Part shown: one piece after another, positions 1,711-31,585 of the stretch
How the letters are laid out: each line of letters starts with the position of its first letter
Position numbering within the stretch: position 1 is the stretch's first letter
Assembly (NCBI GenBank): GCA_963815095.1
Contig: CAWFFH010000003.1
Location: forward strand, 1,109,962-1,141,961
DNA from: Candidatus Bathyarchaeota archaeon
GTDB lineage: Archaea > Thermoproteota > Bathyarchaeia > Bathyarchaeales > Bathycorpusculaceae
Length of the DNA: 32,000 nucleotides
Direction of reading: 5' to 3'
Notes under the pieces: model-generated
What the model was told of the DNA's origin: nothing
What the model saw: the letters and a program-made list of their open reading frames with translations, nothing else
Databases searched by the model: none
Position numbers and translations under genes: made by a program

Positions 1711-3993
1711 TTGCGTGTAAAAGTTGCTGTCTCAGGTATTGTTCAAGGTGTAGGTTTCCGCCCATTCATCTATCGGTTAGCGGTGCGAAACGGCTTGGCA
1801 GGGTATGTCCGAAATAGAGGGGATGCTGGGGTAGAAATCCTACTTGAGGGCAGCCAGACGGACATAAAGTGTTTTATGCGTGATTTAAAGGTGGAGAAGC
1901 CGCAGTTAGCCTCCATCTATGATATTAAATCAACCGAGCTTTCGGGAAGAAAAGAATACCAAAACTTCACAATTTACAAGAGTTCCACTGAGGCAGAGTC
2001 TTCCGGTTCAATCATACCTCCTGACATCGCCATTTGCAATCAATGCCTCAAAGAACTCCGTGACCCCAAAGACTCCCGCTACGAATACTTTTTTATAACT
2101 TGCACCGACTGCGGGCCACGCTTCACAATCATTGAGAAGCTCCCGTACGACCGGGAAAACACTACTATGAAAGAGTTTCCCCTGTGTGGTTTTTGCCTCA
2201 AAGAGTATGAGGACCCAGCGAACAGGCGTTTTCATGCACAAACCGTAGCGTGCCCAACCTGCGGACCCAAAGCATATTTGACAACAAAAAAGGGTGAAAT
2301 AATCCACACCAAGGACCCTGTGAGGGAAGCTGGGAAACTGCTCTCGGAAGGCAATATCCTTGCGGTGAAAGGGTACGGTGGTTTCCATATTGCAGCTTCA
2401 ACATTGATAGAGAAGCCTCTGCAAACCCTCCGTGCAACCAAGCATAGACGCGAGAAACCTTTTGCTATCATGGCAAGAAGTCTTGAAGCAACAATGGGGT
2501 TCGCCGAAGTGGGTTCAAAGGAAAAAGAACTGCTGCTTTCCCCTTCACGCCCAGTGGTGCTGTTAAACAAAAGTCTCAGTTACAACCTTTCGCCACAGGT
2601 GGCGCCTCACCTGCATAACGTGGGCGTAATGCTACCTTACACGGGCCTACACTATATGCTCTTCGACCAAGTCAACGACCCAGCATACGTAATGACCAGC
2701 GCCAACCCGCCAAACCAACCCATCGTGAGGGACAATGTACAAGCGCTCAAAGCATTGGGCAACACTGTTGATTATTTCCTGTTTCATAATCGCGAGATTG
2801 CGCATCGCTGTGACGATTCAGTACTGCGTGTCCATGGCGACTACCAAGTGTTCCTTAGACGAAGCCGAGGTTACGCTCCTGCACCAATAAGGCTTAAACA
2901 AAAATCCAAACGCTGCGTTGTCGCCTTAGGCGGCGAACTTAACAATACTTCCTGTGTTCTGTTGGATGATAAAGCTTTTATCAGCCAGTATATCGGCGAT
3001 GTCGAAAACGTTGAAACTCGCAGCTTCCTACAAGAAGCAACTAATCATCTTCAGCTTTTGACCAACTGTAAGAGCGAGATGGTTGCTTGCGATTTGCATC
3101 CCAAGTTCACCACAACCAACTTGGCTAAGGCGATGGCTGAGGCTAATGGTTCGTTGGTGGTTCAAGTCCAGCATCACCATGCTCATGCGGCAGCTTTGAT
3201 GGCGGAACACAGTTTGGATGAAGCGGTCAGCATTGTTTGCGATGGTTACGGCTACGGCACGGATGGTGAAGCGTGGGGTGGTGAGGTCCTTTTCTGTGCG
3301 CATAAATCAGCCGAGTTCAAAAGGCTTGGGCATTTGAAGACTCAACCTTTGCTGGGCGGCGACTTAGCGAGTCGATATCCCGTGCGTGTGGCGGTTGGGA
3401 TGCTTGGCAAGGTAGGAGTAAACGTTGAAGAATGGCTCTCAAAGAACAACCAGCATTTGCCTTATGGCGAGCCCGAAGCCAAACTTATACTAAGCCAACT
3501 CCAAAAAGGTGTAGGTATCATTGAGACTACGAGTTGCGGGCGAGTTTTGGATGCGATTGCCGTAGTTTTAGGAGTTTGTTTTGAGCGAACATACGAGGGA
3601 GAATTAGCAATGAAACTAGAATCTACAGCTTTAGCTGGCACGGACCTTTTGAAGCTAGAACCTCAACTACAAGGAGATGTTTTGGATACTTCTTACCTGA
3701 TTGGTTCAATTTATGACAGTTTGGGCACGGTTTCTGCTGCAGATTTAGCTTATTCTGCCCACGTTTACCTTGCCAAAGGCTTAGGGCAACTGGCAATTCA
3801 GGCTGCAAATGAGAAAAACTTGAAGAATGTGGGTTTTTCAGGCGGCGCCGCGTGCAACCAAATCCTTGCCCATCTCATGCGCGAAACTGTTGAATCTGCT
3901 GGTTTGAGGTTCTTTGTCCACAAATCTGTCCCCGCTGGAGACGGCGGAATCTCGTTTGGTCAAGCAGTTGTCGCTGGGTTTTCGAAGTTTTAG
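1711..3993 (+). CDS. hypF: [NiFe]-hydrogenase maturation carbamoyltransferase HypF
   Basis: 760 aa. N-terminal acylphosphatase motif (VSGIVQGVGFRPFIYRLA). Two zinc-finger pairs (CNQC...CTDCGPRFT and CGFC...CPTCGPK). YrdC-like region (LAVKGYGGFHIA) and a Kae1-like C-terminal half. Apparent TTG start at 1711; the in-frame upstream ATG is followed by a stop. Confidence 0.93.
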   Translation: MRVKVAVSGIVQGVGFRPFIYRLAVRNGLAGYVRNRGDAGVEILLEGSQTDIKCFMRDLKVEKPQLASIYDIKSTELSGRKEYQNFTIYKSSTEAESSGSIIPPDIAICNQCLKELRDPKDSRYEYFFITCTDCGPRFTIIEKLPYDRENTTMKEFPLCGFCLKEYEDPANRRFHAQTVACPTCGPKAYLTTKKGEIIHTKDPVREAGKLLSEGNILAVKGYGGFHIAASTLIEKPLQTLRATKHRREKPFAIMARSLEATMGFAEVGSKEKELLLSPSRPVVLLNKSLSYNLSPQVAPHLHNVGVMLPYTGLHYMLFDQVNDPAYVMTSANPPNQPIVRDNVQALKALGNTVDYFLFHNREIAHRCDDSVLRVHGDYQVFLRRSRGYAPAPIRLKQKSKRCVVALGGELNNTSCVLLDDKAFISQYIGDVENVETRSFLQEATNHLQLLTNCKSEMVACDLHPKFTTTNLAKAMAEANGSLVVQVQHHHAHAAALMAEHSLDEAVSIVCDGYGYGTDGEAWGGEVLFCAHKSAEFKRLGHLKTQPLLGGDLASRYPVRVAVGMLGKVGVNVEEWLSKNNQHLPYGEPEAKLILSQLQKGVGIIETTSCGRVLDAIAVVLGVCFERTYEGELAMKLESTALAGTDLLKLEPQLQGDVLDTSYLIGSIYDSLGTVSAADLAYSAHVYLAKGLGQLAIQAANEKNLKNVGFSGGAACNQILAHLMRETVESAGLRFFVHKSVPAGDGGISFGQAVVAGFSKF

Positions 3994-4044
3994 ACCAATT
4001 TGTTTTTATCGCCCTTTACAGCCTCTTCTATTGACTGATTAGTT

Positions 4045-4269
4045 ATGTGTTTAGCAATTCCAGCCAAAATAATGAGCCTTAATGGGGCAACAGCCCATGT
4101 GGATTTTGGTCAAGGCGTTTTACGCGACGTTAACGTGTCCTTAGTTGACGCTAAGGTAGGCGAGTACGTGTTGGTTCATGCAGGTTACGCGATTCAGGTT
4201 TTAGAGGAAAAGGAAGCCTTAGAGACACTGAGTCTTTGGGAAGACGTTTTAGCTGCTGCTGGAGAATAA
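4045..4269 (+). CDS. hypC: hydrogenase maturation chaperone HypC/HupF family
   Basis: 74 aa starting MCLAIPAKI, the N-terminal Cys-2 hallmark of HypC. It sits between hypF and hypD. Confidence 0.9.
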   Translation: MCLAIPAKIMSLNGATAHVDFGQGVLRDVNVSLVDAKVGEYVLVHAGYAIQVLEEKEALETLSLWEDVLAAAGE

Positions 4270-4285
4270 ACTGTAAGTTGAGAGC

Positions 4286-5374
4286 ATGGCACAAAACCTC
4301 AGGTTCCGAAATTCCGAATTGGCACACAGCATAGCAGAAAAAATCAAATCAGTGTCGCCCAAAAGGGGGCAAGTTAAGTTTTGCCATGTTTGTGGTACCC
4401 ATGAATGGACCATAACCCACTTTGGCTTGCGAAGTTTATTGCCGGAAAATGTTGAGGTCATCGCTGGACCCGGATGCCCAGTTTGTATTGTGCCTGCTGC
4501 AGAAATCGACGAAGCAGTGCAGTTGGCGCAAAAAGGGATGGTGATAACATGTTTCGGCGATCTTCTCCGAGTGCCGGGAAGTCAATCCTCGCTTTTAGAA
4601 GCCAAAGCAGCTGGCGCTGACGTCAGAATTGTATATGCCGTTTCAGACGCCATTGAAATGGCTAAACGCGAGCAAACTAAACAATTTGTTTTTCACGCCG
4701 TCGGTTTCGAAACCACTGCCCCTATCACTGCGCTTGAAGCCCTCGGTGATTTGCCCAAAAACTTTAGCTTCTTGGTTTCCCATCGCTTGATTCCGCCAGC
4801 CATGGAACTTTTGCTTGGCGTCGGCGACTTGCATATTGACGGATTCATTGCGCCCGGGCATGTAAGCGCCATTATCGGTTTGAAACCCTACGAGTTATTT
4901 ACTCGAGTTTACCGGATGCCTACAGTTGTGGCAGGGTTTGAGCCCAACGACGTGTTGATGTCGCTTTACATGCTTCTAAAACAAGTCAGCGAAAGCGATG
5001 CTTTGCTGGAGAATGAATATTCTCGTGTTGTTAAGCCTGAAGGCAACCCTAAAGCGCTGGAAATGATGAGGCAAGCTTTCACGGTTACTGCTGGGAACTG
5101 GCGCGGCATCGGCAGGCTACCCGACTCAGCATTGCAGTTGCGCGAGTCACTTAAACAGTATGATGCCCGAGAAAAATTCGATGTTCACGTTAAGGAAGGA
5201 AAAGACATTAACTTTGGGTGCGAATGTCATCTGGTAATTATTGGAAAAATCAAGCCCAAAGAATGTCCCCTCTTCATGAAAACATGCACGCCCGCAAAAC
5301 CAGTTGGCGCATGCATGGTTAGCAGCGAAGGCACCTGCCGCGTATGGGCAAAAAACGAAGCTGCCCAAGCCTAA
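4286..5374 (+). CDS. hypD: hydrogenase maturation Fe-S protein HypD
   Basis: 362 aa with the HypD motifs CHVCGTHE and GPGCPVC, plus a C-terminal Cys cluster (FGCECH..., PVGACMVSSEGTC). Confidence 0.93.
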   Translation: MAQNLRFRNSELAHSIAEKIKSVSPKRGQVKFCHVCGTHEWTITHFGLRSLLPENVEVIAGPGCPVCIVPAAEIDEAVQLAQKGMVITCFGDLLRVPGSQSSLLEAKAAGADVRIVYAVSDAIEMAKREQTKQFVFHAVGFETTAPITALEALGDLPKNFSFLVSHRLIPPAMELLLGVGDLHIDGFIAPGHVSAIIGLKPYELFTRVYRMPTVVAGFEPNDVLMSLYMLLKQVSESDALLENEYSRVVKPEGNPKALEMMRQAFTVTAGNWRGIGRLPDSALQLRESLKQYDAREKFDVHVKEGKDINFGCECHLVIIGKIKPKECPLFMKTCTPAKPVGACMVSSEGTCRVWAKNEAAQA

Positions 5375-5381
5375 CTGATTG

Positions 5382-6980
5382 TTACGGAATATTCGTTTGG
5401 AAAACAAAAACTCTATACGGCAGAGTCCCAAAGACTGTTTCGTGAGTAAAATTGCCACTTACAACTAACATGTTGTATACTCCTTGAGCAGTTAAAGTTG
5501 AATTGAAGTATTCGAAACTTGTGTTTTCATCCAACATTAAATACTTGACATTTTTTTGTTCGCACAATACAACCAACTCATTAATGCTAAAGTTTGGTGT
5601 ATATGAGTCGGGCGGCAAAGTGGGGTACTGCCAAACCGAGTTATTATTCGATCTATCGGCATTCAAATAAAACTGGACCATGTTAATATTGAGATTATTT
5701 ACTGGACAGATAACCAAAACAGAATCATTACTGCCTAATCCTTTAGCTACATACTGGGTGGCTTCAGGCAAAGGTATGTAAACTGATTCGTTTGCAACCC
5801 AGGTTTCCGCATCAACAATGCTGTAAACGATGGCGGCTCCCGTAAGAACTATGAGGCAACCAGCGAGAATTTTGACCGCCCATTTGCGATGAATGCTTGT
5901 ATTGAAGGATCTCCAAGTTTTCTCAAATTTATTGTATATGGCTGAAACAAAACATGCGCTTGAAACCGCTAACACTGGAAAAAGAGGCATTGCATAACGC
6001 CAAGTTCTCGAGGCTATCAAAGTGAAGAAAACGTAAACAACAATAAACCAAACCAGGAAAAATTTGTCTTCGGGTTTTTTTCGCCAAGCAAACAGACCCA
6101 ACCCCAACAACCCAAGAACAAATACAAGTATAGAAATTGGGTGAACATACTGCATTCCTTGAAAAGATATTTCCATCAAATAGAAGATTGGTTGAGGAAA
6201 TCTTGCACTGTACACGTTTGCTTGGGCGTCGTTGACTTGAAGCAAATTAATCCATTGCCCTAAACCACCTGAAATAAAAATTGCTGTGAAAACTGGAATT
6301 ATCATGGCTCCAGAGGCAAGGATAAAAAGCGGGAATCTTGAAAACTTTGCTTTAAATTTACTTCGGTAGAGGAGAAAAGGCAAAGTAACAAGTAACACTA
6401 ATCCTGCAACGATTGCTTGATACTTAGTCAAAAACGCTAACCCCAACACTAACCCGCATAGAAGAATAATTTTGTCTTTACCCGTATGCAACCATTCAAC
6501 AAAAAGCAGCAACGTAGCCAAAAAGAAAAATTCCAGCGCCATCTCCAAAAGCGAAAGTCTAGAGAGCCAAATAAACGCCGGCATTGTCGCCATGAATATG
6601 CAAGATATGAATGCGACTCTGTGTCCGTATGTTTTTGAGGCAAGTTTAAACAAAACCCCTAGGGTAAGCAACCCAAAAACTACGGAGACCAGTCTTCCTG
6701 CCCATAAACTGGTGCCGAAAACCGCAAAGAAGCCAGCTGTAACTGCGTCGAATAAGGGTGGATAAAACGTTACGCCAAGATATTCCGTGATACGTCCTTG
6801 CGATAATAGAAGTGCTCCATATAGGTGAGGTGTTTCATCCCAAAGTATGCTTTTGTAAGCCAAATTATACAATAGCAAAAGACCACAAGTAACTGTGAAA
6901 ATCAAGAATAAAATATGCCAACGCTCAAACCTAAACCTTACTTGTTTAGACCTGATTTGAGAGAGCATTTTGTCACCCAA
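5382..6980 (-). CDS. GT-C fold membrane glycosyltransferase (PMT/ArnT-like, GT39/GT83-type)
   Basis: 532 aa. Many hydrophobic segments fill the first ~390 aa, followed by a soluble C-terminal domain rich in N-x-S/T sequons. The acidic first-loop motif LWDETPHLYG resembles the DE motif of the PMT/ArnT families. Confidence 0.7.
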   Translation of the reverse strand: MGDKMLSQIRSKQVRFRFERWHILFLIFTVTCGLLLLYNLAYKSILWDETPHLYGALLLSQGRITEYLGVTFYPPLFDAVTAGFFAVFGTSLWAGRLVSVVFGLLTLGVLFKLASKTYGHRVAFISCIFMATMPAFIWLSRLSLLEMALEFFFLATLLLFVEWLHTGKDKIILLCGLVLGLAFLTKYQAIVAGLVLLVTLPFLLYRSKFKAKFSRFPLFILASGAMIIPVFTAIFISGGLGQWINLLQVNDAQANVYSARFPQPIFYLMEISFQGMQYVHPISILVFVLGLLGLGLFAWRKKPEDKFFLVWFIVVYVFFTLIASRTWRYAMPLFPVLAVSSACFVSAIYNKFEKTWRSFNTSIHRKWAVKILAGCLIVLTGAAIVYSIVDAETWVANESVYIPLPEATQYVAKGLGSNDSVLVICPVNNLNINMVQFYLNADRSNNNSVWQYPTLPPDSYTPNFSINELVVLCEQKNVKYLMLDENTSFEYFNSTLTAQGVYNMLVVSGNFTHETVFGTLPYRVFVFQTNIP

Positions 6981-7054
6981 GCGACTCTAACCTCGCCTGG
7001 TCATTATATTAATATTTGCAGAAAACTGGAGACAATCTCTCTTTGTCTGATTTG

Positions 7055-8119
7055 TCAACAGATTCTTGGTACTGGATCGCCAACTGGTTTTGCGATTATT
7101 CTTTTGCCACCCACCAAAGTTTGCATCGCTACTCCCTTGAATTCGGAGGTGATTTCGCCGATTATTTGTGCATCCTTGCCCTCTTTGGTCTGCTTTAAGA
7201 ACGCGAGTACTTCTTCGGTTTTTTGGTGAACAGCGCCAATTATGATTTTGCCCTCATTGCCAATTTCTAAGGGGTCTAGGCCAAGCATTTCGCATGCAGT
7301 TTGTACGTCGCTTCGGATTGGGACCTTGTCTTCATGGATTAGGATGCCTATTTTTGATTTTTCGGTCCATTCGTTTAGGGCGTCGGCTAAGCCTCCTCGG
7401 GTGGGATCTTTCATTGCGACAACGCCGCCGACATTGCCCAGCAAACTTTGAATCATTCGGTTAAGCGGCTTCACATCCGACTTTATTTCACTGCCAAACT
7501 TTAAGCCCTGCTGTGCCGAAAGCACTGCTAAACCATGGTCTCCGATTGTGCCTGACAATATGATTTTGTCGCCGACTGCAAGGTTAGAATCAAGTGCCCA
7601 GCGGGCTTTAAGTTCACGATATTTCCTGGCAACTTGAAGGTTACTCTCGAGAGCTGGAGTTCGCCTGCCTATGCCTGAAACATTCATAACACATCCGCCT
7701 AGACTGCCCTTCTCCACAACTTTCGTATCACCCGTAACTATGCCAACGCCCGCTTCAATGCAGGCTTGTCGCATGCTACCAAGGATAAGCTTCAAATCCG
7801 ATAGTAACAAACCCTCCTCAAGGATGAGTCCGCAAGCCAACGCATAAGGCTCCGCGCCCAAGCACGAAATATCGTTAACAGTACCTGAAATGGATAGACG
7901 CCCGATGTCGCCGCCTGGGAAAAATATGGGTTTAACGGCGTGGGAGTCGCTTTTGAAAACTATATCTCCAATGACTGCTGCGTCATCCATGGCTTCCAAT
8001 GGAACTTCGGCTTCGTTGACTAATCCGCCAAAATATTTTACTATGTAGTTTTTGACGAGGTCATGCATTACTGAGCCGCCCGCGCCATGCAGCATTGTGA
8101 TTTTCTCGATTTTATCCAT
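7055..8119 (-). CDS. hypE: hydrogenase maturation carbamoyl dehydratase HypE
   Basis: 354 aa PurM-fold protein. N-terminus has MLHGAGGS, and the C-terminus ends ...PRIC, the HypE-specific terminal cysteine motif. Confidence 0.93.
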   Translation of the reverse strand: MDKIEKITMLHGAGGSVMHDLVKNYIVKYFGGLVNEAEVPLEAMDDAAVIGDIVFKSDSHAVKPIFFPGGDIGRLSISGTVNDISCLGAEPYALACGLILEEGLLLSDLKLILGSMRQACIEAGVGIVTGDTKVVEKGSLGGCVMNVSGIGRRTPALESNLQVARKYRELKARWALDSNLAVGDKIILSGTIGDHGLAVLSAQQGLKFGSEIKSDVKPLNRMIQSLLGNVGGVVAMKDPTRGGLADALNEWTEKSKIGILIHEDKVPIRSDVQTACEMLGLDPLEIGNEGKIIIGAVHQKTEEVLAFLKQTKEGKDAQIIGEITSEFKGVAMQTLVGGKRIIAKPVGDPVPRIC

Positions 8120-9981: not shown

Positions 9982-10262
9982 TGAAAGTAACTCCTGATAT
10001 TATCCGTTACGAGTTTATCGGTGCTCAAGCAAGAATCGCTCAGAGTGTTCATGCAGGTTACCTTGGTTTAGCTGGTCCAGTAATTGCAGAAACTAAAAAC
10101 ACATTGACTCTGATTCATCAAGGTCAACCTAAAAATGTCATAAAAGACTTGGCAACCTTTGACTTCAAATTTGGCGATGGTACAACTGTAGAAATTGACG
10201 GTAACCTATTAGTTGGCAGGTCTGAAGACAGGCTAAAGAAAGGTGTAAAGAGGTTATGGTAA
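9981..10262 (+). CDS. rnp1: RNase P protein component 1 (Rpp29/Pop4 homologue)
   Basis: 93 aa in the conserved archaeal slot between L29 and S17. Motifs: GLAGPVIAETKNTLTLI and DGNLLVGRSEDRLKK. Confidence 0.85.
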   Translation: MKVTPDIIRYEFIGAQARIAQSVHAGYLGLAGPVIAETKNTLTLIHQGQPKNVIKDLATFDFKFGDGTTVEIDGNLLVGRSEDRLKKGVKRLW

Positions 10263-10263
10263 T

Positions 10264-10584
10264 ATGTCGATGAATTTTAAGCAACCAAAAAAGACATGTG
10301 ACGACCGAAATTGTCCATTCCACGGTGAGTTAGCTGTGCGAGGACGTGTCCTGGAAGGTGTCGTTCACACTGCAAAGATGGATAAAACTGTTATTGTTGA
10401 CCGAGAATTTACTCAATTCTCCTCAAAATTTGTTCGCTATGAACGCAGACACGGCCATATTGCTTCCCACAATCCACCATGCATTGACGTTAAGGAAGGC
10501 GACCGCGTAAAAATCGCAGAGTGCCGACCAGTCAGTAAGACAGTATCATTTGTGGTTGTAGAAAAATTAGGAGAGGAACGATAA
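10264..10584 (+). CDS. rps17: 30S ribosomal protein uS17
   Basis: CDDRNCPFHGELAVRGRVLEGVV...DVKEGDRVKIAECRPVSKT is typical archaeal S17. Confidence 0.94.
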   Translation: MSMNFKQPKKTCDDRNCPFHGELAVRGRVLEGVVHTAKMDKTVIVDREFTQFSSKFVRYERRHGHIASHNPPCIDVKEGDRVKIAECRPVSKTVSFVVVEKLGEER

Positions 10585-10585
10585 T

Positions 10586-11029
10586 ATGTGTGCGGCGAAG
10601 GCAAAGCAGAGAGCCTTAACAGCAAAAGGTATGCTTTCTCACGGCCAGAAAATTAGTCGTGGACTCTTAGCAGGCTCCGAATTAAGGTGTACCGATAACA
10701 CAGGTGCACGGGTTTTGCGTTTGATCCAAGCAATGGGTTATAAAGGTAGACTAAGACGTTACCCATCAGCCACTGTTGGCGACAAAGTAACTGTTTCCGT
10801 ACGTCAAGGCTCACCCGACATGCGCAAAAAAATATTCCAAGCCGTTATTGTCCGCCAAAGGAAATGTTTCCGACGTGTTGACGGGGTTTGGATTCAATTT
10901 GAAGATAACGCCGCAGTAATAATCACACCTGACGGCGAAATGAAGGGTTCTGAAATTCGTGGCCCAGTAGCAAGAGAGGCAGCTGAAAGATGGCCAAGAA
11001 TCGCAAGTGCCTCCAGCATAATTGTGTAG
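10586..11029 (+). CDS. rpl14: 50S ribosomal protein uL14
   Basis: CTDNTGAR...VVRQRK...FEDNAAVII...GPVAREAAERWPRIASASSIIV. The ATG at 10586 follows AGGAGAGG. The internal ATG at 10631 would give a 132-aa protein, the length typical of archaeal L14, so the start is ambiguous. Confidence 0.9.
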   Translation: MCAAKAKQRALTAKGMLSHGQKISRGLLAGSELRCTDNTGARVLRLIQAMGYKGRLRRYPSATVGDKVTVSVRQGSPDMRKKIFQAVIVRQRKCFRRVDGVWIQFEDNAAVIITPDGEMKGSEIRGPVAREAAERWPRIASASSIIV

Positions 11030-11039
11030 GTGTAGAATA

Positions 11040-11693
11040 ATGCAAAATACAAAACGTGTAAAGAACCCTGGTAAACAAAGAAAGATGCTCTTTAACGCTC
11101 CCGCTCACATACGACACAAATTCATGTCAGCCCCTCTATCACGTGAGTTAACTGCGTCAAGAGGCGCAAAGACTCTTCCAGTAAGAAGAGGCGATACCAT
11201 TCTCATTAAACGCGGAGATAACAAAGGATTTGAAGGCAAAGTTTCCCGGGTTGACCTGAAAGCATTCCGCATTTACATTGAAGGATTGACACGCGAAAAA
11301 GTAGACGGAACGAACATCTTCCTCCCCGTTCACCCATCCAAAGTTGAGATACGGAACCTCAACTTGGACGATAAATGGCGAAAGAATATTCTTGAAAGAA
11401 AGAAAGCGACAGAAGCTCCCATTAAACAAGAAAAAACTAAAGCTAAGCCAGCAAAGAAAGCTGAAAAGGCTCCAACTAAAACAAAAGCGGAAGTTGAAGA
11501 AGAAAAAACCGTAGATGCAGAAGTTGCAAAAGGGCCTGCATCAGAAATGACAACCAAAGAAGCACCCGCAAAGAAGCCTGTCGTCAAAAAAACAGTAACG
11601 TCTACAGCAGCAAAGAAGGCACCAGCTGCAAAAGAAACCGCGTCAAAGGCAAAGTCTAAGAAAACCTCTGAAAAAACTCAAGGAGAACAATAA
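11040..11693 (+). CDS. rpl24: 50S ribosomal protein uL24 with ~95-aa Lys/Ala-rich C-terminal extension
   Basis: KOW-type core (LPVRRGDTILIKRGDNKGFEGKVSRVD). I prefer the ATG at 11040 over the tracked TTG at 11022. The tail from about 11400 is KKATEAPIKQEKTKAKPAKKAEKAP... Confidence 0.9.
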   Translation: MQNTKRVKNPGKQRKMLFNAPAHIRHKFMSAPLSRELTASRGAKTLPVRRGDTILIKRGDNKGFEGKVSRVDLKAFRIYIEGLTREKVDGTNIFLPVHPSKVEIRNLNLDDKWRKNILERKKATEAPIKQEKTKAKPAKKAEKAPTKTKAEVEEEKTVDAEVAKGPASEMTTKEAPAKKPVVKKTVTSTAAKKAPAAKETASKAKSKKTSEKTQGEQ

Positions 11694-27228: not shown

Positions 27229-28275
27229 CTAATTTTTTTTGAAAAGTAACTTTGCATTTTTCCATTGGTCTTTAGCTAGTGATATATTTCCGTATGGGCT
27301 TCCGTGAAGCGAATAGAATACGTAGCAGAGATAGTTGCATTGAGTGCATTGGTGATAGTTTTTTCTTAATTGTTTGAATTCTGGACTTTTCCATTTTTGA
27401 GTTAAATCAAAGATTGACCCTGCAAAGTTGTGGCTGTGGCATCCTGCAACTCTGCCCAAATGGTCAATGACTAAAAACTGGTTTAGTGCTTGGCATTTCC
27501 ACGATCTTTTGTTGTCTTCTTCGTAGATGCTTCGAAGTGTTTCAAGCAATTTATCGGTCATGAGAATTTTTTTGTTTTTCTTTTTCATCTCGATAAGCGA
27601 GTTGCAGAGGTTAACCATTGCTTTTTTGTCTGTTATTACAAATTCGTCATTTGCTCTTCCCAGCTTAAACAACTGTTTGCTGTCAGCAGATGTATCGTAT
27701 GAGTAGAGACTATACCAGACTGGAATACCTTTTTCGGTGAAGTGGTTTGTTAGGTCAACGATTTCATAAAGGTTCTTTTGAGAAATTGTTGGAGTTACAC
27801 TAACTTTTATGCCTTCATTGTGGAGGGTTTCAACGGCTTGAGTTGCATTTTTCCAAGCGCCCGGAACTGATTTGATGTAATCGTTTTTTGCTTCATCCAG
27901 ACTATCAATTGAGATTGCAACGAAATCCACTTTTCTTAATGCATCAAGTTTTTTTGCAGCCATACTTCCATTATCATAAACAGTTGTAACAAACAATTTT
28001 GATGCATAATTGATTATTTCGCCGATGTCATCTCGAAGTAGCGGGTCTCCGCCTGAGAGGACAAGCTCAATTACACCAATTTTTTTTAGAATATCTAAGC
28101 CTTTCTTTATTTCGTCGGTTGCAAGTTCTCTTTGATCTTGTTCTTTCCAAACGGTGCATCCACGGCATTGATAGTTGCATTTTCTTGTTACTAGCCATTG
28201 TGCATGATGAGGTTTGCCAGAAGCAAGCGAACGCGCCGCAATTGATGCTGCTTTTTTGAAACCAGACGTCAACAA
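27229..28275 (-). CDS. radical SAM enzyme with SPASM/twitch-like C-terminal Cys motifs
   Basis: CNYQCRGC (CX3CX2C) lies near the N-terminus, with GGDPLL as a SAM-binding motif. The C-terminal CQALNQFLVIDHLGRVAGC fits CX9-15GX4C and is followed by CTQCNYLC. TTG start; the in-frame upstream codon is a stop. Confidence 0.85.
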   Translation of the reverse strand: MLTSGFKKAASIAARSLASGKPHHAQWLVTRKCNYQCRGCTVWKEQDQRELATDEIKKGLDILKKIGVIELVLSGGDPLLRDDIGEIINYASKLFVTTVYDNGSMAAKKLDALRKVDFVAISIDSLDEAKNDYIKSVPGAWKNATQAVETLHNEGIKVSVTPTISQKNLYEIVDLTNHFTEKGIPVWYSLYSYDTSADSKQLFKLGRANDEFVITDKKAMVNLCNSLIEMKKKNKKILMTDKLLETLRSIYEEDNKRSWKCQALNQFLVIDHLGRVAGCHSHNFAGSIFDLTQKWKSPEFKQLRKNYHQCTQCNYLCYVFYSLHGSPYGNISLAKDQWKNAKLLFKKN

Positions 28276-28360: not shown

Positions 28361-29377
28361 TCATGTGCTTTGACGAGACAGTGCAATCCACAGATGGTCT
28401 GAGGTTGGTCTTGGTAATATCTCTGGCGAATCATCCTTGTGAATGATTATGCGTTTGTTTGGGGTTGGGTTGAATTCGCCGATGACATCAGCGTATATGT
28501 GTTCTTGGCCGAGTGAGTCGATAATTTTATTTGTGGCTTGTGGGTCGGCGGCGATAAGTAGTGCTCCTGAACTGATAAGTTGCAGTGGGTCAATTTCGTA
28601 AAACCTGCAGATTTTAGCGGTTTCAGGTTCAATAGTTATTTTCTCTTCAAACACGCGTACGCCTAAGCCTGCTGCGTCCGCCATTTCGTGAATACCGTTT
28701 AAGATTCCGCCTTCAGTTGGGTCGTGCATGGCATGTACTCCACCTGCTCTGTAAGCGGTTAAGGCATCTTTTACGATGCTGATTTGTTTGTAGAAACCTT
28801 TAGCGCTATCCAACAAGGTGGAGGTGAAAGTTTTTGTGAGCTGCACTTCCCGGTCAGAAGCTAAGATAGCTGTGCCCTCAATTCCTGCGCTCTTCGTCAA
28901 AATTAGTTTGTCGCCTGCTTTGGTGCCAGCGGCAGTAACGTATTTGCCTTTTTCGGTTAAACCCATGATGCAGCCCACCACAATCGGGTTCTCTAAGCCG
29001 GGTGTGGATTCGCAGTGTCCGCCCACAATAGCAATGCCCAACTCTTTTGCAGCTTTGTGCATTTGGGTACTGATGGTTTCAACGATTTTGCTGTCCGCGT
29101 TCTCTGGAAGCATTATGCATGAGAAGAAAAACGCGGGTTCCACGCCGAAAGTGGCAACATCGTTGGCGTTTACGTTTATGGCTTCCCATCCGACTCGCTC
29201 AACCGCACCAGTTATGGGGTCCATAGAGACTATAGCGTTCTTATTTCCAAAATCTAAAACGGCTCCGTCCACACCTGCGGCGGGTCCCAAAATAACTTCG
29301 CTACGGGCGGTGCCGAGGTTTTTGAAAACTACATCTTTTAGGATGTCTATGGGAATTTTTCCAGGTGGAAGCTTCAT
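28361..29377 (-). CDS. AIR synthase-related protein (PurM/HypE/ThiL superfamily), specific function unknown
   Basis: MKLPPGKIPIDILKDVVF...GVDGAVLDF...VSMDPITG...NDVATFG...GGHCE...HAMHDPTEGG. It lacks the HypE C-terminal PRIC. I prefer the ATG at 29377 (GAGG 8 nt upstream) over the tracked 29452, which would overlap the upstream gene. Confidence 0.8.
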   Translation of the reverse strand: MKLPPGKIPIDILKDVVFKNLGTARSEVILGPAAGVDGAVLDFGNKNAIVSMDPITGAVERVGWEAINVNANDVATFGVEPAFFFSCIMLPENADSKIVETISTQMHKAAKELGIAIVGGHCESTPGLENPIVVGCIMGLTEKGKYVTAAGTKAGDKLILTKSAGIEGTAILASDREVQLTKTFTSTLLDSAKGFYKQISIVKDALTAYRAGGVHAMHDPTEGGILNGIHEMADAAGLGVRVFEEKITIEPETAKICRFYEIDPLQLISSGALLIAADPQATNKIIDSLGQEHIYADVIGEFNPTPNKRIIIHKDDSPEILPRPTSDHLWIALSRQST

Positions 29378-29390
29378 GCGTATTCCTCTG

Positions 29391-29918
29391 TTAAAGCTGG
29401 CTTTTAAGCTGTGGGAAAATACGCAGTACTGCGTGCATGATTGGTACTGCAATTATCAGGCCAATGAGCATTTGAACGATGTTGAAAGGAACTTCTAGAA
29501 TCGCCACAGTACTTCCTAAGATAAGTGTTTCATAAAGGAAGTATCCTAAAACCATCTCAAACCCTCCAATAACAATGGATATGGTGGCGCTTAAAGTGAT
29601 GCTTTTAGTCTTCTGTACTATTTTCTTGTATAGGATGCCGACGAGTAAACCTTCAATTGCTTTTATAGTGAAGGTTCCGGGGGCATACTGCGGAGCTACA
29701 AGTGCATCTGCTATTGTTGCTCCTGCACCTGCTATGGCACCTACAAAAGGCCCGAACAGCAATGCAGCTACGTAAATGAGAGTCTCTCCGAGATTGAAGT
29801 ATCCACTGGTAGCAGGAATAGGAATCACAAACAGTAGTGTGGCTGCTGCGACTAGTGCTGCAAAGATTGCGGCTACTGCAATTTTGAATGGTGTGGTTGT
29901 GTTAAATTTGGATTGCAT
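29391..29918 (-). CDS. ECF-transporter S-component-like membrane protein (substrate unknown)
   Basis: 175 aa with about six hydrophobic segments. The pattern GYFNLGETLIYVAALLFGP...GAGATIADAL...YAPGTFTIKAIEGLLVG is typical of the S-component family. No EcfA or EcfT genes are in the window. Confidence 0.7.
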   Translation of the reverse strand: MQSKFNTTTPFKIAVAAIFAALVAAATLLFVIPIPATSGYFNLGETLIYVAALLFGPFVGAIAGAGATIADALVAPQYAPGTFTIKAIEGLLVGILYKKIVQKTKSITLSATISIVIGGFEMVLGYFLYETLILGSTVAILEVPFNIVQMLIGLIIAVPIMHAVLRIFPQLKSQL

Positions 29919-29991
29919 GTTTTTCGCCTTAGTATAGTTGTGACTATAGTATAGTTGCAGCTATACCATCTAATAAATATTCCCAAAACAA

Positions 29992-31404
29992 TCACATCAG
30001 CAACTGAATCTCATCAAACGCCGCCAAAACTTTTTTCCCACGCTCCGAAACACGGAAAAACTTCTTCCCACCAACCTCGTAACCAATCACCAACCCCTTA
30101 TCTGACAGTTCGTTGAGGTGTTGGTAGATAGCGGCGCGCGTCATTATCTTGCCCAATTGTTTCCACAAATCATAACCATACGTATCTTTCTCATTGAGAA
30201 TCTTGAGAATTTTCTGTTTCGTACTTACCGCGAGCCCTAAGCCTATCGTCTTCTGTTTCTTGTTCAAAGCTTGCAACACATCAGTGGCTTTAAGACCGCT
30301 CCCCGTAATTAGGCACACAACGCTACCGTCTTTTGAGATTCTTTTTTCATCTACAAGCTTTTTCAATGCTGCGACAGTTATTGCACTGGCTGGTTCTGCA
30401 AACACGCCCTCTAGTTTTGCGATCTGGAGTTCTGCAATCAAAATGTCTTGATCGGACACGGTTAAGGAAAGCCCTCCTGACTCAGTTATTGCTTTGGAGG
30501 CAAGTTCGCATTGAAGTGGATTTCCTACGAGGATTGCAAGGGCTCGAGTGGATGGATTGCAAGTTTTATTATTTTCAGAACCTTTGGCCGCGTTCACTAT
30601 AGCAGCACATCCGTCAGGTTGAACTCCAACCATCTTTGGCAAGGTCTTCGTTAAGCCGCGTTGTTTTAGTTCTTTGAATCCTTTCCAAACTGAGTAAATG
30701 GTGCCCCCGCTTCCCATGGAAACTATCATCCACTCGGGAACCTCATATTGTTCCATAATTTCGAAAGAAATGGTTTTTTGGGCTTCAATCACCAGCGGGT
30801 TAAGTTCCGCAGTTGCTTGATACCAACCTGTTTCTTTTGCTACAGCCTTTGCTTTTTGGATTGAGTCGTCAATGATTTCGCCGTATTCCTCAATTATCGC
30901 ATCGTAGGCAAGTATCTGGGCAAGTTTTCCCACATCCACTTCTTTTGGAACTATTACATGACAATTTAATCCAGCTTTTGCCGAGTAAGCGGCCAGAGAT
31001 GCTCCCATGTTGCCGTTAGTTGCGCATACCAGTGTATCTGAAAGGAGGTCTATAGCATTAGAGGTTAGGAGTGCAGCAGCCCGGTCTCGATAGGAGTTGG
31101 TTGGGTTTCGTGTTTCATCCTTCAAATAAAGTTTAGTTAATCCCATTGTTTTCGCAAGTCTCTCAGCCTTATGAAGGGGTGTTCCACCCTCTCCTAAACT
31201 GACCATTTGCCTGACAGCAGGAAGCATTTGCCTATACCTCCAAAACCTAAGTGTTCCAGAAAACTTGACCGATCGTTTCTGGGGAACGTCTGCCGTGTAC
31301 TCCAATATTTTACCGCATTTTTCGCAGTTACTTCTAAGTGGGTAAACTGGAAATTTGGTGCCACAATGACTGCATTGAAGGTTTTCGTTGGACTCTTGGA
31401 GCAT
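29992..31404 (-). CDS. zinc-ribbon / threonine-synthase-like (fold-type II PLP) domain with Lys-to-Arg at the Schiff-base position / C-terminal PadR-like winged helix
   Basis: CSHC-x12-CEKC at the N-terminus. LYLKDETRNPTNSYRDRAAA compares with the canonical NPTGSFKDRG. CATNGNMGASLAAY and SMGSGGTIYS are also present. The C-terminal LKILNEKDTYGYDLWKQLG...IYQHLNELSDKGLVIGYEVGGKKFFRVSERGKKVL resembles PadR. Confidence 0.85.
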   Translation of the reverse strand: MLQESNENLQCSHCGTKFPVYPLRSNCEKCGKILEYTADVPQKRSVKFSGTLRFWRYRQMLPAVRQMVSLGEGGTPLHKAERLAKTMGLTKLYLKDETRNPTNSYRDRAAALLTSNAIDLLSDTLVCATNGNMGASLAAYSAKAGLNCHVIVPKEVDVGKLAQILAYDAIIEEYGEIIDDSIQKAKAVAKETGWYQATAELNPLVIEAQKTISFEIMEQYEVPEWMIVSMGSGGTIYSVWKGFKELKQRGLTKTLPKMVGVQPDGCAAIVNAAKGSENNKTCNPSTRALAILVGNPLQCELASKAITESGGLSLTVSDQDILIAELQIAKLEGVFAEPASAITVAALKKLVDEKRISKDGSVVCLITGSGLKATDVLQALNKKQKTIGLGLAVSTKQKILKILNEKDTYGYDLWKQLGKIMTRAAIYQHLNELSDKGLVIGYEVGGKKFFRVSERGKKVLAAFDEIQLLM

Positions 31405-31465
31405 TTTTGGTTAAATCCAGTCAACTATTATTGTGTTCCTCCATTTCTCTCTTATCCAAAATTTG

Positions 31466-31481
31466 GTTACTAAATAGTAAC
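31466..31481. promoter_or_regulatory. palindrome GTTACTA-AA-TAGTAAC in the divergent promoter region upstream of the ThrC-like/wHTH gene
   Basis: 7-bp perfect arms with a 2-bp spacer, 62-77 nt upstream of the ATG at 31404. The palindrome ACTATAGT abuts it at 31480-31487. Confidence 0.4.
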
Positions 31482-31585
31482 TATAGTTGTTTCCCAAGAG
31501 CATTACAAAAGTAGCTAATGCGAGGGGGAAAATCTAAATGTGACTTCTTCAAAGAATAATGTAGAACTAAGAGAGTTGCGTAAAA

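Follow-up and report, generated by a model that had tools for sequence, protein, structure and literature searches.

In bacterial regulators of the MocR/GabR/PdxR type, a domain derived from a pyridoxal 5'-phosphate (PLP) enzyme serves as the effector sensor of a DNA-binding protein. This sensor is of fold type I and aminotransferase-like, it keeps the Schiff-base lysine, and the winged helix-turn-helix (wHTH) domain is N-terminal and of the GntR type. ThiR, an archaeal vitamin regulator with a sensor from an enzyme of related chemistry, reportedly joins a helix-turn-helix (HTH) domain to a ThiN-like domain, acts through palindromic operators, and includes vitamin transporters in its regulons. 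Archaeal RbkR combines an enzyme domain with a wHTH, controls vitamin synthesis and uptake genes, keeps its enzymatic activity, autoregulates, and uses lineage-specific palindromes, sometimes two adjacent ones (PMC5397151). In classical PadR proteins, represented by PadR, LmrR, Rv3488, and BcPadR, an N-terminal wHTH is followed by a C-terminal dimerisation helix or domain, and ligand binding takes place in or close to the interface of the dimer. The gene analyzed here has likenesses to all of these systems. It is located at 29992..31404 (minus strand) of a 32,000-nucleotide stretch of DNA, designated as the window, from a Candidatus Bathyarchaeota archaeon (contig CAWFFH010000003.1, positions 1,109,962 to 1,141,961). 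It encodes a 470-aa fusion of a zinc ribbon, a threonine synthase (ThrC)-like domain without the catalytic lysine, and a PadR-type wHTH. The protein is probably a ligand-gated transcription factor and not a threonine synthase. As far as sequences can tell, the ThrC-derived domain would be the sensor, a palindrome next to the gene would be the operator, and a vitamin-type operon would be repressed, with a thiamine-pathway phosphate as the best guess for the ligand.

The fusion differs from each of the described systems. In contrast to MocR/GabR/PdxR, its sensor is of fold type II, its wHTH is C-terminal and PadR-type with no GntR match in the protein, the Schiff-base lysine is lost, and the family is archaeal. 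With ThiR it shares neither the fold of the sensor nor the type of DNA-binding domain, and the two domains come in the opposite order; no ThiN match was found in the fusion with Pfam or NCBIfam, and ThiR was not identified in the loci studied. Unlike RbkR, the fusion has apparently lost catalysis, has no operator before its own gene, and contains no riboflavin-kinase domain. Its C-terminal 79 aa superpose on PadR subfamily-2 including the trailing helix, and a palindromic operator is associated with it as with PadR proteins, whereas the wHTH is here appended to a 370-aa enzyme-derived domain, which presumably supplies dimerisation and ligand binding. With ThrC (EC 4.2.3.1) it shares the fold, the PLP-pocket motifs, and the zinc ribbon of the archaeal enzymes, but it lacks the Schiff-base lysine and the residues for the phosphate of O-phosphohomoserine, and it has an extra DNA-binding domain. 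Judged by its domains, the fusion belongs to none of MocR/GabR/PdxR, ThiR, and RbkR, and is a putative new variant of the enzyme-derived sensor regulators.

The gene had been pointed out in an initial annotation, which named MocR/GabR as the nearest logic and recognized no described family. The differences listed there in fold type, domain order, and lysine are borne out, but ThiR and RbkR are precedents as well. No description of a ThrC-PadR fusion was found in full-text literature searching, whose coverage leaves out most subscription papers, and an earlier mention is possible; NCBIfam, on the other hand, already models the architecture as a threonine synthase (NF004170/PRK05638). The fusion scores 396 bits with this equivalog, below its cutoff of 421. 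Since 2-441 of the 442 profile positions are covered, the model itself includes the wHTH. The family is named threonine synthase or pyridoxal-phosphate dependent enzyme in the sources, and the threonine synthase label is probably a systematic mis-annotation.

The open reading frame starts with ATG, and the three parts proposed in the initial annotation were all recognized. The Cys4 zinc ribbon (CxxC-x12-CxxC) at aa 11-30 (31315..31374, minus strand) reads C11-x2-C14-x12-C27-x2-C30, and the four cysteines are invariant or nearly so in an alignment of 48 homologues; such an N-terminal ribbon is also present in canonical archaeal ThrC. The fold-type II PLP-enzyme domain, earlier estimated at about 330 aa and proposed here as the ligand sensor, is covered by a Pfam PALP match at aa 68-368 (30301..31203, minus strand; E = 1.3e-72). 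ThrC is the best match both in sequence, with 35-38% identity between the fusion and solved bacterial ThrC structures, and in fold. A full-length AlphaFold2 model built on 48 homologues has a mean predicted local distance difference test score (pLDDT) of 87.7, and its top Foldseek matches are ThrC structures (template modelling (TM) scores of 0.82-0.87, target-normalised). A predicted flexible linker with pLDDT <50 follows at aa 372-393 (30226..30291, minus strand). The PadR-type wHTH with a C-terminal helix occupies aa 394-470 (29995..30225, minus strand), where PadR (PF03551) matches aa 399-461 with 34.7 bits against a gathering score of 27. In the models this unit has the topology H-H-H-E-E-H: three helices, a two-strand wing, and the trailing helix. 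The last 79 aa, modelled separately, reached a pLDDT of 95.9, and the best PDB matches of this wHTH model belong to the PadR family (4esf, 6abt, 3hhh, LmrR 4zzd, 5zi8, and 5dym; TM 0.80-0.86), with Rv3488 and CdPadR among the best structural matches. These domain matches are far beyond chance, and hundreds of protein clusters share the architecture.

The motif at aa 100-111 is NPTNSYRDRAAA. The codon CGA at 31087..31089 (minus strand) encodes Arg106, and in HMMER alignments with four ThrC structures (2zsj, 2d1f, 6cgq, and 1uim; E-values from 1e-61 to 1e-51) Arg106 stands opposite the Schiff-base lysine of NPTGSFKDRG, just as had been read by eye. The glycine-rich phosphate loop, also claimed to be retained, is present as SMGSGGTIYS at aa 229-238. 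Its G-S-G-G-T (aa 231-235; 30700..30714, minus strand) was identified as the PLP 5'-phosphate-binding loop from the homologue alignment and the column comparison with GNAGN of ThrC. Among 48 sequences of the R clade, the group of fusions to which this protein belongs, N100, P101, T102, S104, D107, R108, G131, N132, G231, G233, and T367 are invariant, as is the GLK motif. In the alignment with T. thermophilus ThrC, these residues presumably represent the lysine-flanking motif, the contact to O3' of PLP (Asn132), the 5'-phosphate loop, and the ring-nitrogen contact (Thr367).

The substrate side of the pocket is different. The ThrC residues that we take to bind the carboxylate and phosphate of the substrate, T85, T88, N154, S155, and R160 in T. 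thermophilus numbering, align with N130, M133, A199, E200, and V205 of the fusion. The carboxylate loop S84-T85-G-N-T88 (STGNT) reads TNGNM, and Glu200 is a new, near-invariant residue in the R-clade sequences. On this alignment the O-phosphohomoserine phosphate site is gone from the fusion. A migrated catalytic lysine, which the initial annotation had named as possible counter-evidence, was considered and rejected: no conserved lysine specific to the fusions could take its place. The invariant K95, K160, K210, and K372 are equally conserved in true ThrC, and K396 lies within the wHTH. Because the invariant lysines are common to true ThrC, no relocated catalytic lysine is indicated. The simplest reading of the sequences is a duplicated thrC that would have abandoned catalysis while its pocket could still hold an aromatic ring with a phosphate.

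The loss of the lysine is coupled to the wHTH throughout the family. All of the best 120 homologues (at least 73% identity) have both PALP and PadR; 119 of them have R at the lysine position in NPT[NHS]SYRDR, and the motif was not found in the remaining one. From a search of 1.84 billion cluster representatives, 150 diverse relatives at 50% identity clustering were aligned and the lysine column was read. The representatives with a wHTH, a C-terminal domain of around 70-80 aa, show R (19), L (19), I (16), and also V, T, M, F, S, A, N, and Y. All 71 proteins of the K-type group in the same set keep K, and most of these are around 400-420 aa long without a wHTH. Across about 500 homologues, the presence of the wHTH and the absence of the lysine are almost perfectly correlated. 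These figures are based on the alignment and on precomputed Pfam columns, which are reliable, while a regular-expression test for the wHTH under-detects divergent domains; precomputed PF03551 is present for nearly all homologues. Scoring the column of Arg106, as the initial annotation had suggested, separates the two architectures almost completely. Four K-type ThrC-like proteins of around 620 aa (P0193, P0225, P0226, and P0249) have a different C-terminal extension of around 200 aa and are grouped in the tree.

In a neighbour-joining tree of the PALP domain, a quick distance tree that is indicative only, the fusions form two groups apart from the K-type enzymes. The R clade includes the protein from the window, those from Pyrococcus horikoshii, P. 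abyssi, P. yayanosii, Thermococcus onnurineus, and many other Thermococcales, and those from Methanomicrobia-like metagenome-assembled genomes (MAGs) and from Odin- and Hermod-archaeota. When Thermococcus was used as the seed, the lysine column of the best 120 sequences contained 114 R, 2 K, 2 S, and 1 M. The hydrophobic clade, with I, L, V, or M at the lysine column, is distributed in Bathyarchaeia, Nitrososphaerales, and Thor-, Njord-, and Prometheoarchaeota, and none of 120 sequences in a set seeded from this second clade has K. An identical protein (P0001) is encoded on several contigs longer than 1 Mb, and its close relatives are assigned to Bathyarchaeia by their source names. An assembly chimera, which had been raised as a possible flaw, was rejected, since the fusion recurs in hundreds of archaeal homologues, including orthologues in complete Pyrococcus and Thermococcus genomes of cultured archaea.

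Canonical K-type thrC genes coexist with the fusion. L004 and L160 each carry both genes on one contig, and further Bathyarchaeia (L016) have such a thrC too. In L160 a K-type thrC with NPTGSFKDR and GNAGN (3825-4717, plus strand) divergently adjoins an R-type fusion, and in L004 a full-length K-type thrC with a zinc ribbon (3879-5138, minus strand) is 0.8 kb from one; both are fusions of 57-58% identity. The position of thrC beside R-type fusions suggests that the sensor originated by local duplication of thrC.

The candidate operator lies in the 73-bp spacer between the stop codon of the fusion gene and the ATG of the next gene, which encodes an S-component of the energy-coupling factor (ECF) type. 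The spacer contains TTTATTAG, then GGTATAGCTGCAACTATACT, and then an overlapping second copy. The TATA-box-like element TTTATTAG (29970..29977, minus strand) is a putative part of the promoter of the downstream operon, and orthologous spacers likewise have an AT-rich block directly 5' of the operator. The palindrome GTATAG-N6-CTATAC at 29949..29966, with the family consensus TAGTATAGTT-NN-AACTATACTA, is an exact match conserved across fusion loci. The second copy at 29932..29949 has 1 mismatch and lies 13 nt before the ATG of the S-component gene. Orthologous spacers conserve the TATA-like/palindrome element as a unit. The exact core has a single match in the window; it occurs once in each of the seven fusion loci fetched by protein (7/7) and in 0/79 other loci. 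At the sequence level, the palindrome is thus conserved and highly specific at a promoter-like position beside the fusion gene. The initial annotation had put forward two regions for DNA-binding tests, and one of them, 29919-29991, holds this palindrome.

A metagenome collection was scanned with RGTATAGNTNNAACTATACTA, and at least 120 motif-bearing loci were obtained. They were classed by BLAST against the window proteins, counting genes within 250 bp of the motif. Among the 120 loci listed, the motif is flanked by homologues of both the fusion and the S-component in 67, by the fusion only in 8 (at least some at contig ends), by the S-component only in 9, and by neither gene in 36. Fusion and/or S-component thus flank the motif in 84 of these 120, and the palindrome is directly 3' of the fusion gene in 75. 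The motif-flanking fusions are 57-85% identical to the query, and every one with a readable motif has R. Positions outside the search pattern are also symmetric: all loci (100%) have T at -2, and 87% have T at +6. An AT-rich TATA-like block and a GAAA block are found just upstream of the operator across loci. In a scan of 100 related loci (763 kb), a single site was found in 87, and ten have a second site, which is within 60 bp in all but L166.

The other region proposed for DNA-binding tests, 31405-31585 upstream of the fusion gene, contains no conserved site. Overlapping perfect palindromes, AACTATAGTT and GTTACTA-TT-TAGTAAC, are present at window 31466-31488; they are half-site-like and are absent from 42 orthologous upstream regions. 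Autoregulation through this region was considered and rejected: AACTATAGTT (31479-31488) and GTTACTATTTAGTAAC (31466-31481) were treated as chance occurrences, the operator was found in 0/42 orthologous regions, and half-sites were not enriched. No riboswitch or other known RNA family of Rfam reached its gathering score anywhere in the window, and no tRNAs were found.

The S-component gene (29391..29918, minus strand; 175 aa) is the predicted first gene of the regulated operon. It belongs to PF07155 (103 bits), and its sole PDB match below E = 0.5 is 4hzu_S, HmpT/PdxU2 of L. brevis (E = 1.4e-14). Compared with the HmpT pocket, E41, Y120, N140, and Q143 are kept, while H84 is changed to K and Q87 to E. 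The second gene (28361..29377, minus strand) encodes a 338-aa protein of the AIR-synthase superfamily with AIRS and AIRS_C domains. This AIRS-like protein is below every NCBIfam cutoff, and the nearest models are HypE and ThiL. In loci with enough sequence, an AIRS-like gene follows the S-component gene in 40/43, on the same strand in 36, mostly with gaps of <80 bp. Among the loci fetched by protein, the S-component gene is adjacent in six of six with 63-100% identity, and it is around 3 kb off in L004 (57%). Five of the six also have the AIRS-like gene alongside, and in the sixth the contig ends first. The triad of fusion, S-component, and AIRS-like gene recurs at 73-100% identity despite differing flanks, and at 63% in L003.

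A radical SAM/SPASM protein recognized with Pfam and NCBIfam models is encoded further downstream (27229..28275, minus strand). It is a conserved neighbour of uncertain membership in the system: of 13 loci whose sequence extends 6 kb or more beyond the S-component gene on its downstream side, 12 contain a homologue (among them L108, L133, L149, L150, L152, L156, L163, L164, and L166), with varying position and strand. Its nearest model is TIGR03961 (PTO1314 family), matched far below the cutoff. The window also contains a hydrogenase-maturation cluster with HypF (1711-3993; acylphosphatase, zf-HYPF, Sua5, and Kae1-like domains), HypD (4286-5374), and a second AIRS/AIRS_C protein, probably HypE (7055-8119, minus strand). 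The assignment of the AIRS-like gene at 28361-29377 as HypE was rejected, since it is below the cutoff, has no C-terminal Cys motif, and is apart from the hypF-hypD-AIRS cluster at 1711-8119. Given the separate AIRS protein for hydrogenase maturation, it is a distinct paralogue.

In most of the 36 loci with neither gene beside the motif, the match looks fortuitous, lying in unrelated sequence near genes such as integrases and gyrB. Five of them (L102, L106, L116, L126, and L143) have a perfect palindrome directly before a longer PF07155 S-component gene, followed by a ThiL-like AIRS gene. In L106 and L102, the two loci scored against NCBIfam, this ThiL-like gene is a bona fide thiL, with 272 bits (L106) and 261 bits (L102) for TIGR01379 against a cutoff of 184. 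The cluster of thiL-linked S-components is assigned to Bathyarchaeia MAGs by NCBI. In L102 a radical SAM gene of the AmmeMemoRadiSam type (9995-11053, minus strand; 216.6 bits against a cutoff of 220) follows thiL with a 1-bp gap; it is unrelated to the radical SAM protein of the window. Comparison of L106:6398-7318, L213:4974-5918, and window 29391-29918 revealed two subtypes of S-component. At the positions of HmpT residues 84 and 140, the short form that accompanies R-clade fusions shows K and N, and the form with an N-terminal extension of around 140 aa, which is thiL-linked or found in L213, shows H and D. Both keep an acidic residue at 41, Y120, and Q143.

In the hydrophobic clade, a PF07155 gene is adjacent to the fusion in three of four loci. 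The neighbours of the L090 fusion are a divergently oriented S-component gene, a gene of the ThiT family, and an AIRS-like gene whose product shares 50% identity with the window copy. In L092 the S-component gene beside the fusion is likewise divergent. L213 has an upstream S-component and a complete EcfT/EcfAA' module, with an aminotransferase, another PALP protein, and a HAD phosphatase in the vicinity. AT-rich inverted repeats (ATATATAAG...TATATA) are observed before the S-component genes at L090:4960-4995 and L213:4940-4966; an operator of the second clade and plain TATA boxes are indistinguishable here. In Pyrococcus horikoshii and Thermococcus onnurineus (L087:4050-7323 and L088:4049-7335), the fusion starts 4-5 bp after the gene for aCPSF1 (KH/beta-CASP), and it is possibly co-transcribed with this termination-factor gene.

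The following mechanism is proposed. An archaeal thrC already carrying a zinc ribbon would have been duplicated and have gained a C-terminal PadR-type wHTH through a flexible linker of around 20 residues. The Schiff-base lysine and the O-phosphohomoserine phosphate site would have been lost next, while the pocket for the phosphorylated pyridine ring of PLP was kept. The retained pocket may bind a small phosphorylated heterocycle reversibly, without catalysis. A ThrC-type dimer would offer two wHTH domains to the 20-bp palindrome TAGTATAGTT-NN-AACTATACTA. A site between the TATA box and the start codon is the usual arrangement of archaeal repressors. The palindrome comes right after the TATA-like box and before the start codon, so its occupancy should block assembly of the pre-initiation complex, and the protein would therefore be a repressor. 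The ligand would probably be a co-repressor, as in archaeal ThiR. Likely targets are the operon of the HmpT/PdxU2-like S-component and the AIR-synthase-superfamily protein and, in other Bathyarchaeia contigs, the S-component-thiL operon. A non-catalytic metabolite-sensing transcription factor, the core proposal of the initial annotation, is thus supported at the sequence level by the coupling of lysine loss to the wHTH, the presence in complete genomes, the coexisting thrC, and the conserved operator.

For the ligand, the best guess is a thiamine-pathway phosphate, namely hydroxymethylpyrimidine phosphate (HMP-P), with thiamine monophosphate (TMP) or thiamine diphosphate (TPP) as alternatives, placed slightly above a B6 vitamer. 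The thiamine line is based on the same operator preceding a bona fide thiL and on the ThiT gene adjoining the L090 fusion. HmpT was originally predicted as a hydroxymethylpyrimidine carrier. The L. brevis HmpT/PdxU2 co-purified with pyridoxamine, an assignment made by mass spectrometry and molecular dynamics (MD), and E41, H84, Q87, Y120, N140, and Q143, conserved among HmpT homologues, were probed by MD for contacts with pyridoxamine (PMC4860826). HMP-P in the old PLP pocket would reconcile the B6 and thiamine lines, although this is an inference only. HMP-P and PLP have the ring methyl and the phosphooxymethyl group in common; HMP-P carries NH2 where PLP has CHO, and a lysine would therefore be needless. 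Glu200 and Arg106 could contact the amino group and a phosphate of HMP-P. We tentatively propose, as one possibility, that the lysine-less ThrC domain binds HMP-P or hydroxymethylpyrimidine diphosphate (HMP-PP), or else TMP or TPP, and that the fusion is the thiamine regulator so far missing from Bathyarchaeia and their relatives among the archaea, with the second clade as a sister sensor for another ligand.

Several observations weigh against the interpretation as a ligand-gated repressor of this operon or against a thiamine ligand. The sequences preceding the fusion gene in 42 orthologous loci contain no operator, and therefore no autoregulation signal ties the protein to the site. The palindrome lies 3' of the fusion gene and could be the site of another regulator encoded elsewhere. 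The TATA box and the transcription start are themselves predictions from sequence. Two wHTH-bearing representatives among the 150, P0122 (Bathyarchaeota) and P0125 (Lokiarchaeota), keep K. Neither an S-component nor an AIRS gene adjoins the fusion in Thermococcales or in one Methanomicrobia-like orthologue at the loci examined, and the target set may therefore be lineage-specific. Thermococcales are reported to use ThiR for thiamine transport, in a paper that also deals with the role of PF0601 (PMC10746257); with ThiR already serving this function, a universal thiamine role is weakened. Finally, the evidence for the ligand conflicts, because the ancestry and the HmpT/PdxU2 similarity lead to B6 while thiL and ThiT lead to thiamine.

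Among the alternatives, the one that survives best retains the same transcription factor mechanism with PLP or pyridoxamine 5'-phosphate (PMP), held non-covalently, as the effector. The fusion would then be an archaeal counterpart of PdxR, which controls B6 genes in response to PLP (cited in PMC9997740), and the regulon would serve B6 uptake and salvage with a PdxU-type S-component and a novel activating enzyme of the AIRS family. This is possible but somewhat doubtful. It agrees with the invariance of the PLP-contact residues despite the lysine loss and with the S-component being nearest to HmpT/PdxU2, with 4/6 of the MD-probed HmpT residues kept (PMC4860826). PdxU and PdxU2 are both members of PF07155, and alternative B6 kinases are still sought (PMC9997740). 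In Thermococcales, thiamine is already under the reported ThiR, leaving room for a B6 role, and the aminotransferase, PALP protein, and HAD phosphatase close by in L213 fit such a role as well. Neither thiL, preceded by the operator, nor ThiT, beside one fusion, has a B6 role, however, and the loci examined contained no pdxS, pdxT, pdxK, or pdxH. Moreover, HmpT was assigned to pyridoxamine by mass spectrometry and MD, and HMP had been predicted first.

It is unlikely that the palindrome belongs to a different regulator, for example a ThiR or RbkR of Bathyarchaeia, and that the fusion is a mere neighbour with another role. The site is 3' of the fusion gene and also occurs at thiL operons without a fusion gene nearby, archaeal ThiR and RbkR act on vitamin transporters through palindromes, and one reported RbkR consensus, TnAG-N6-CTnA, resembles ATAG-N6-CTAT (PMC5397151). 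An rbkR-like gene, with a weak MarR-type HTH and a cytidine triphosphate-dependent riboflavin kinase domain, is located 4 kb from the fusion in L086 (1694-2383, minus strand). The operator is absent upstream of this gene, whereas rbkR is itself usually part of the RbkR regulon (PMC5397151), and the palindrome is not supported as an RbkR site. The S-component is HmpT-like and not RibU-like. In 75 of the 120 loci listed, the site directly abuts a gene itself encoding a wHTH, and a DNA-binding domain kept across hundreds of fusions needs a target.

Less likely still is a regulator of threonine or amino-acid metabolism sensing a ThrC-type metabolite (O-phosphohomoserine, threonine, or homoserine). 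The domain is of ThrC descent, and a canonical thrC is divergently adjacent in L160 and around 0.8 kb off in L004; adjacency in 2 loci only is, however, equally explained by tandem duplication. ThrC N154, S155, and R160 are replaced by A, E, and V and the carboxylate loop STGNT by TNGNM, no second copy of the operator was found at thrC in the related loci scanned, including those carrying thrC, and the genes conserved next to the fusion encode an S-component of vitamin type and an enzyme of the AIRS family, with no amino-acid genes among them. Very improbably, the fusion is still an enzyme, a threonine synthase or another PLP-dependent activity with the wHTH as an accessory or oligomerisation module, since, although it passes the TIGR00260 thrC cutoff (206 versus 167 bits), is annotated as threonine synthase in all sources, and has an otherwise intact PLP pocket, the catalytic lysine is replaced across the family by chemically unrelated R, L, I, V, M, T, S, F, Y, A, and N, the substrate phosphate site is lost, canonical thrC coexists, and no conserved lysine found only in the fusions could substitute (K95, K160, K210, and K372 are also in ThrC).

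Hundreds of archaeal "threonine synthase" genes, including those of P. horikoshii, P. abyssi, T. onnurineus, and many Bathyarchaeia and Asgard MAGs, probably do not encode enzymes, and their mis-annotation distorts metabolic reconstructions such as calls of threonine prototrophy. The family would be a clean natural case of a pseudoenzyme sensor derived from a fold-type II PLP enzyme, and its two clades have replaced the lysine in different ways. Few regulators of archaeal cofactor metabolism are known, and the searches made brought up none built in this way; the family gives a testable protein, a 20-bp candidate operator, and candidate target genes. Vitamin salvage still has steps without an identified gene according to published genomics (PMC9997740), and the HmpT-like S-components and the putatively co-regulated enzyme of AIR-synthase type may fill some of them. 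Should the thiamine proposal be true, they would constitute a salvage route new to science, with an HmpT-like S-component and an AIR-synthase-family kinase paralogous in logic to ThiL, and a whole family of archaeal cofactor sensors would have been present under the name of threonine synthase.

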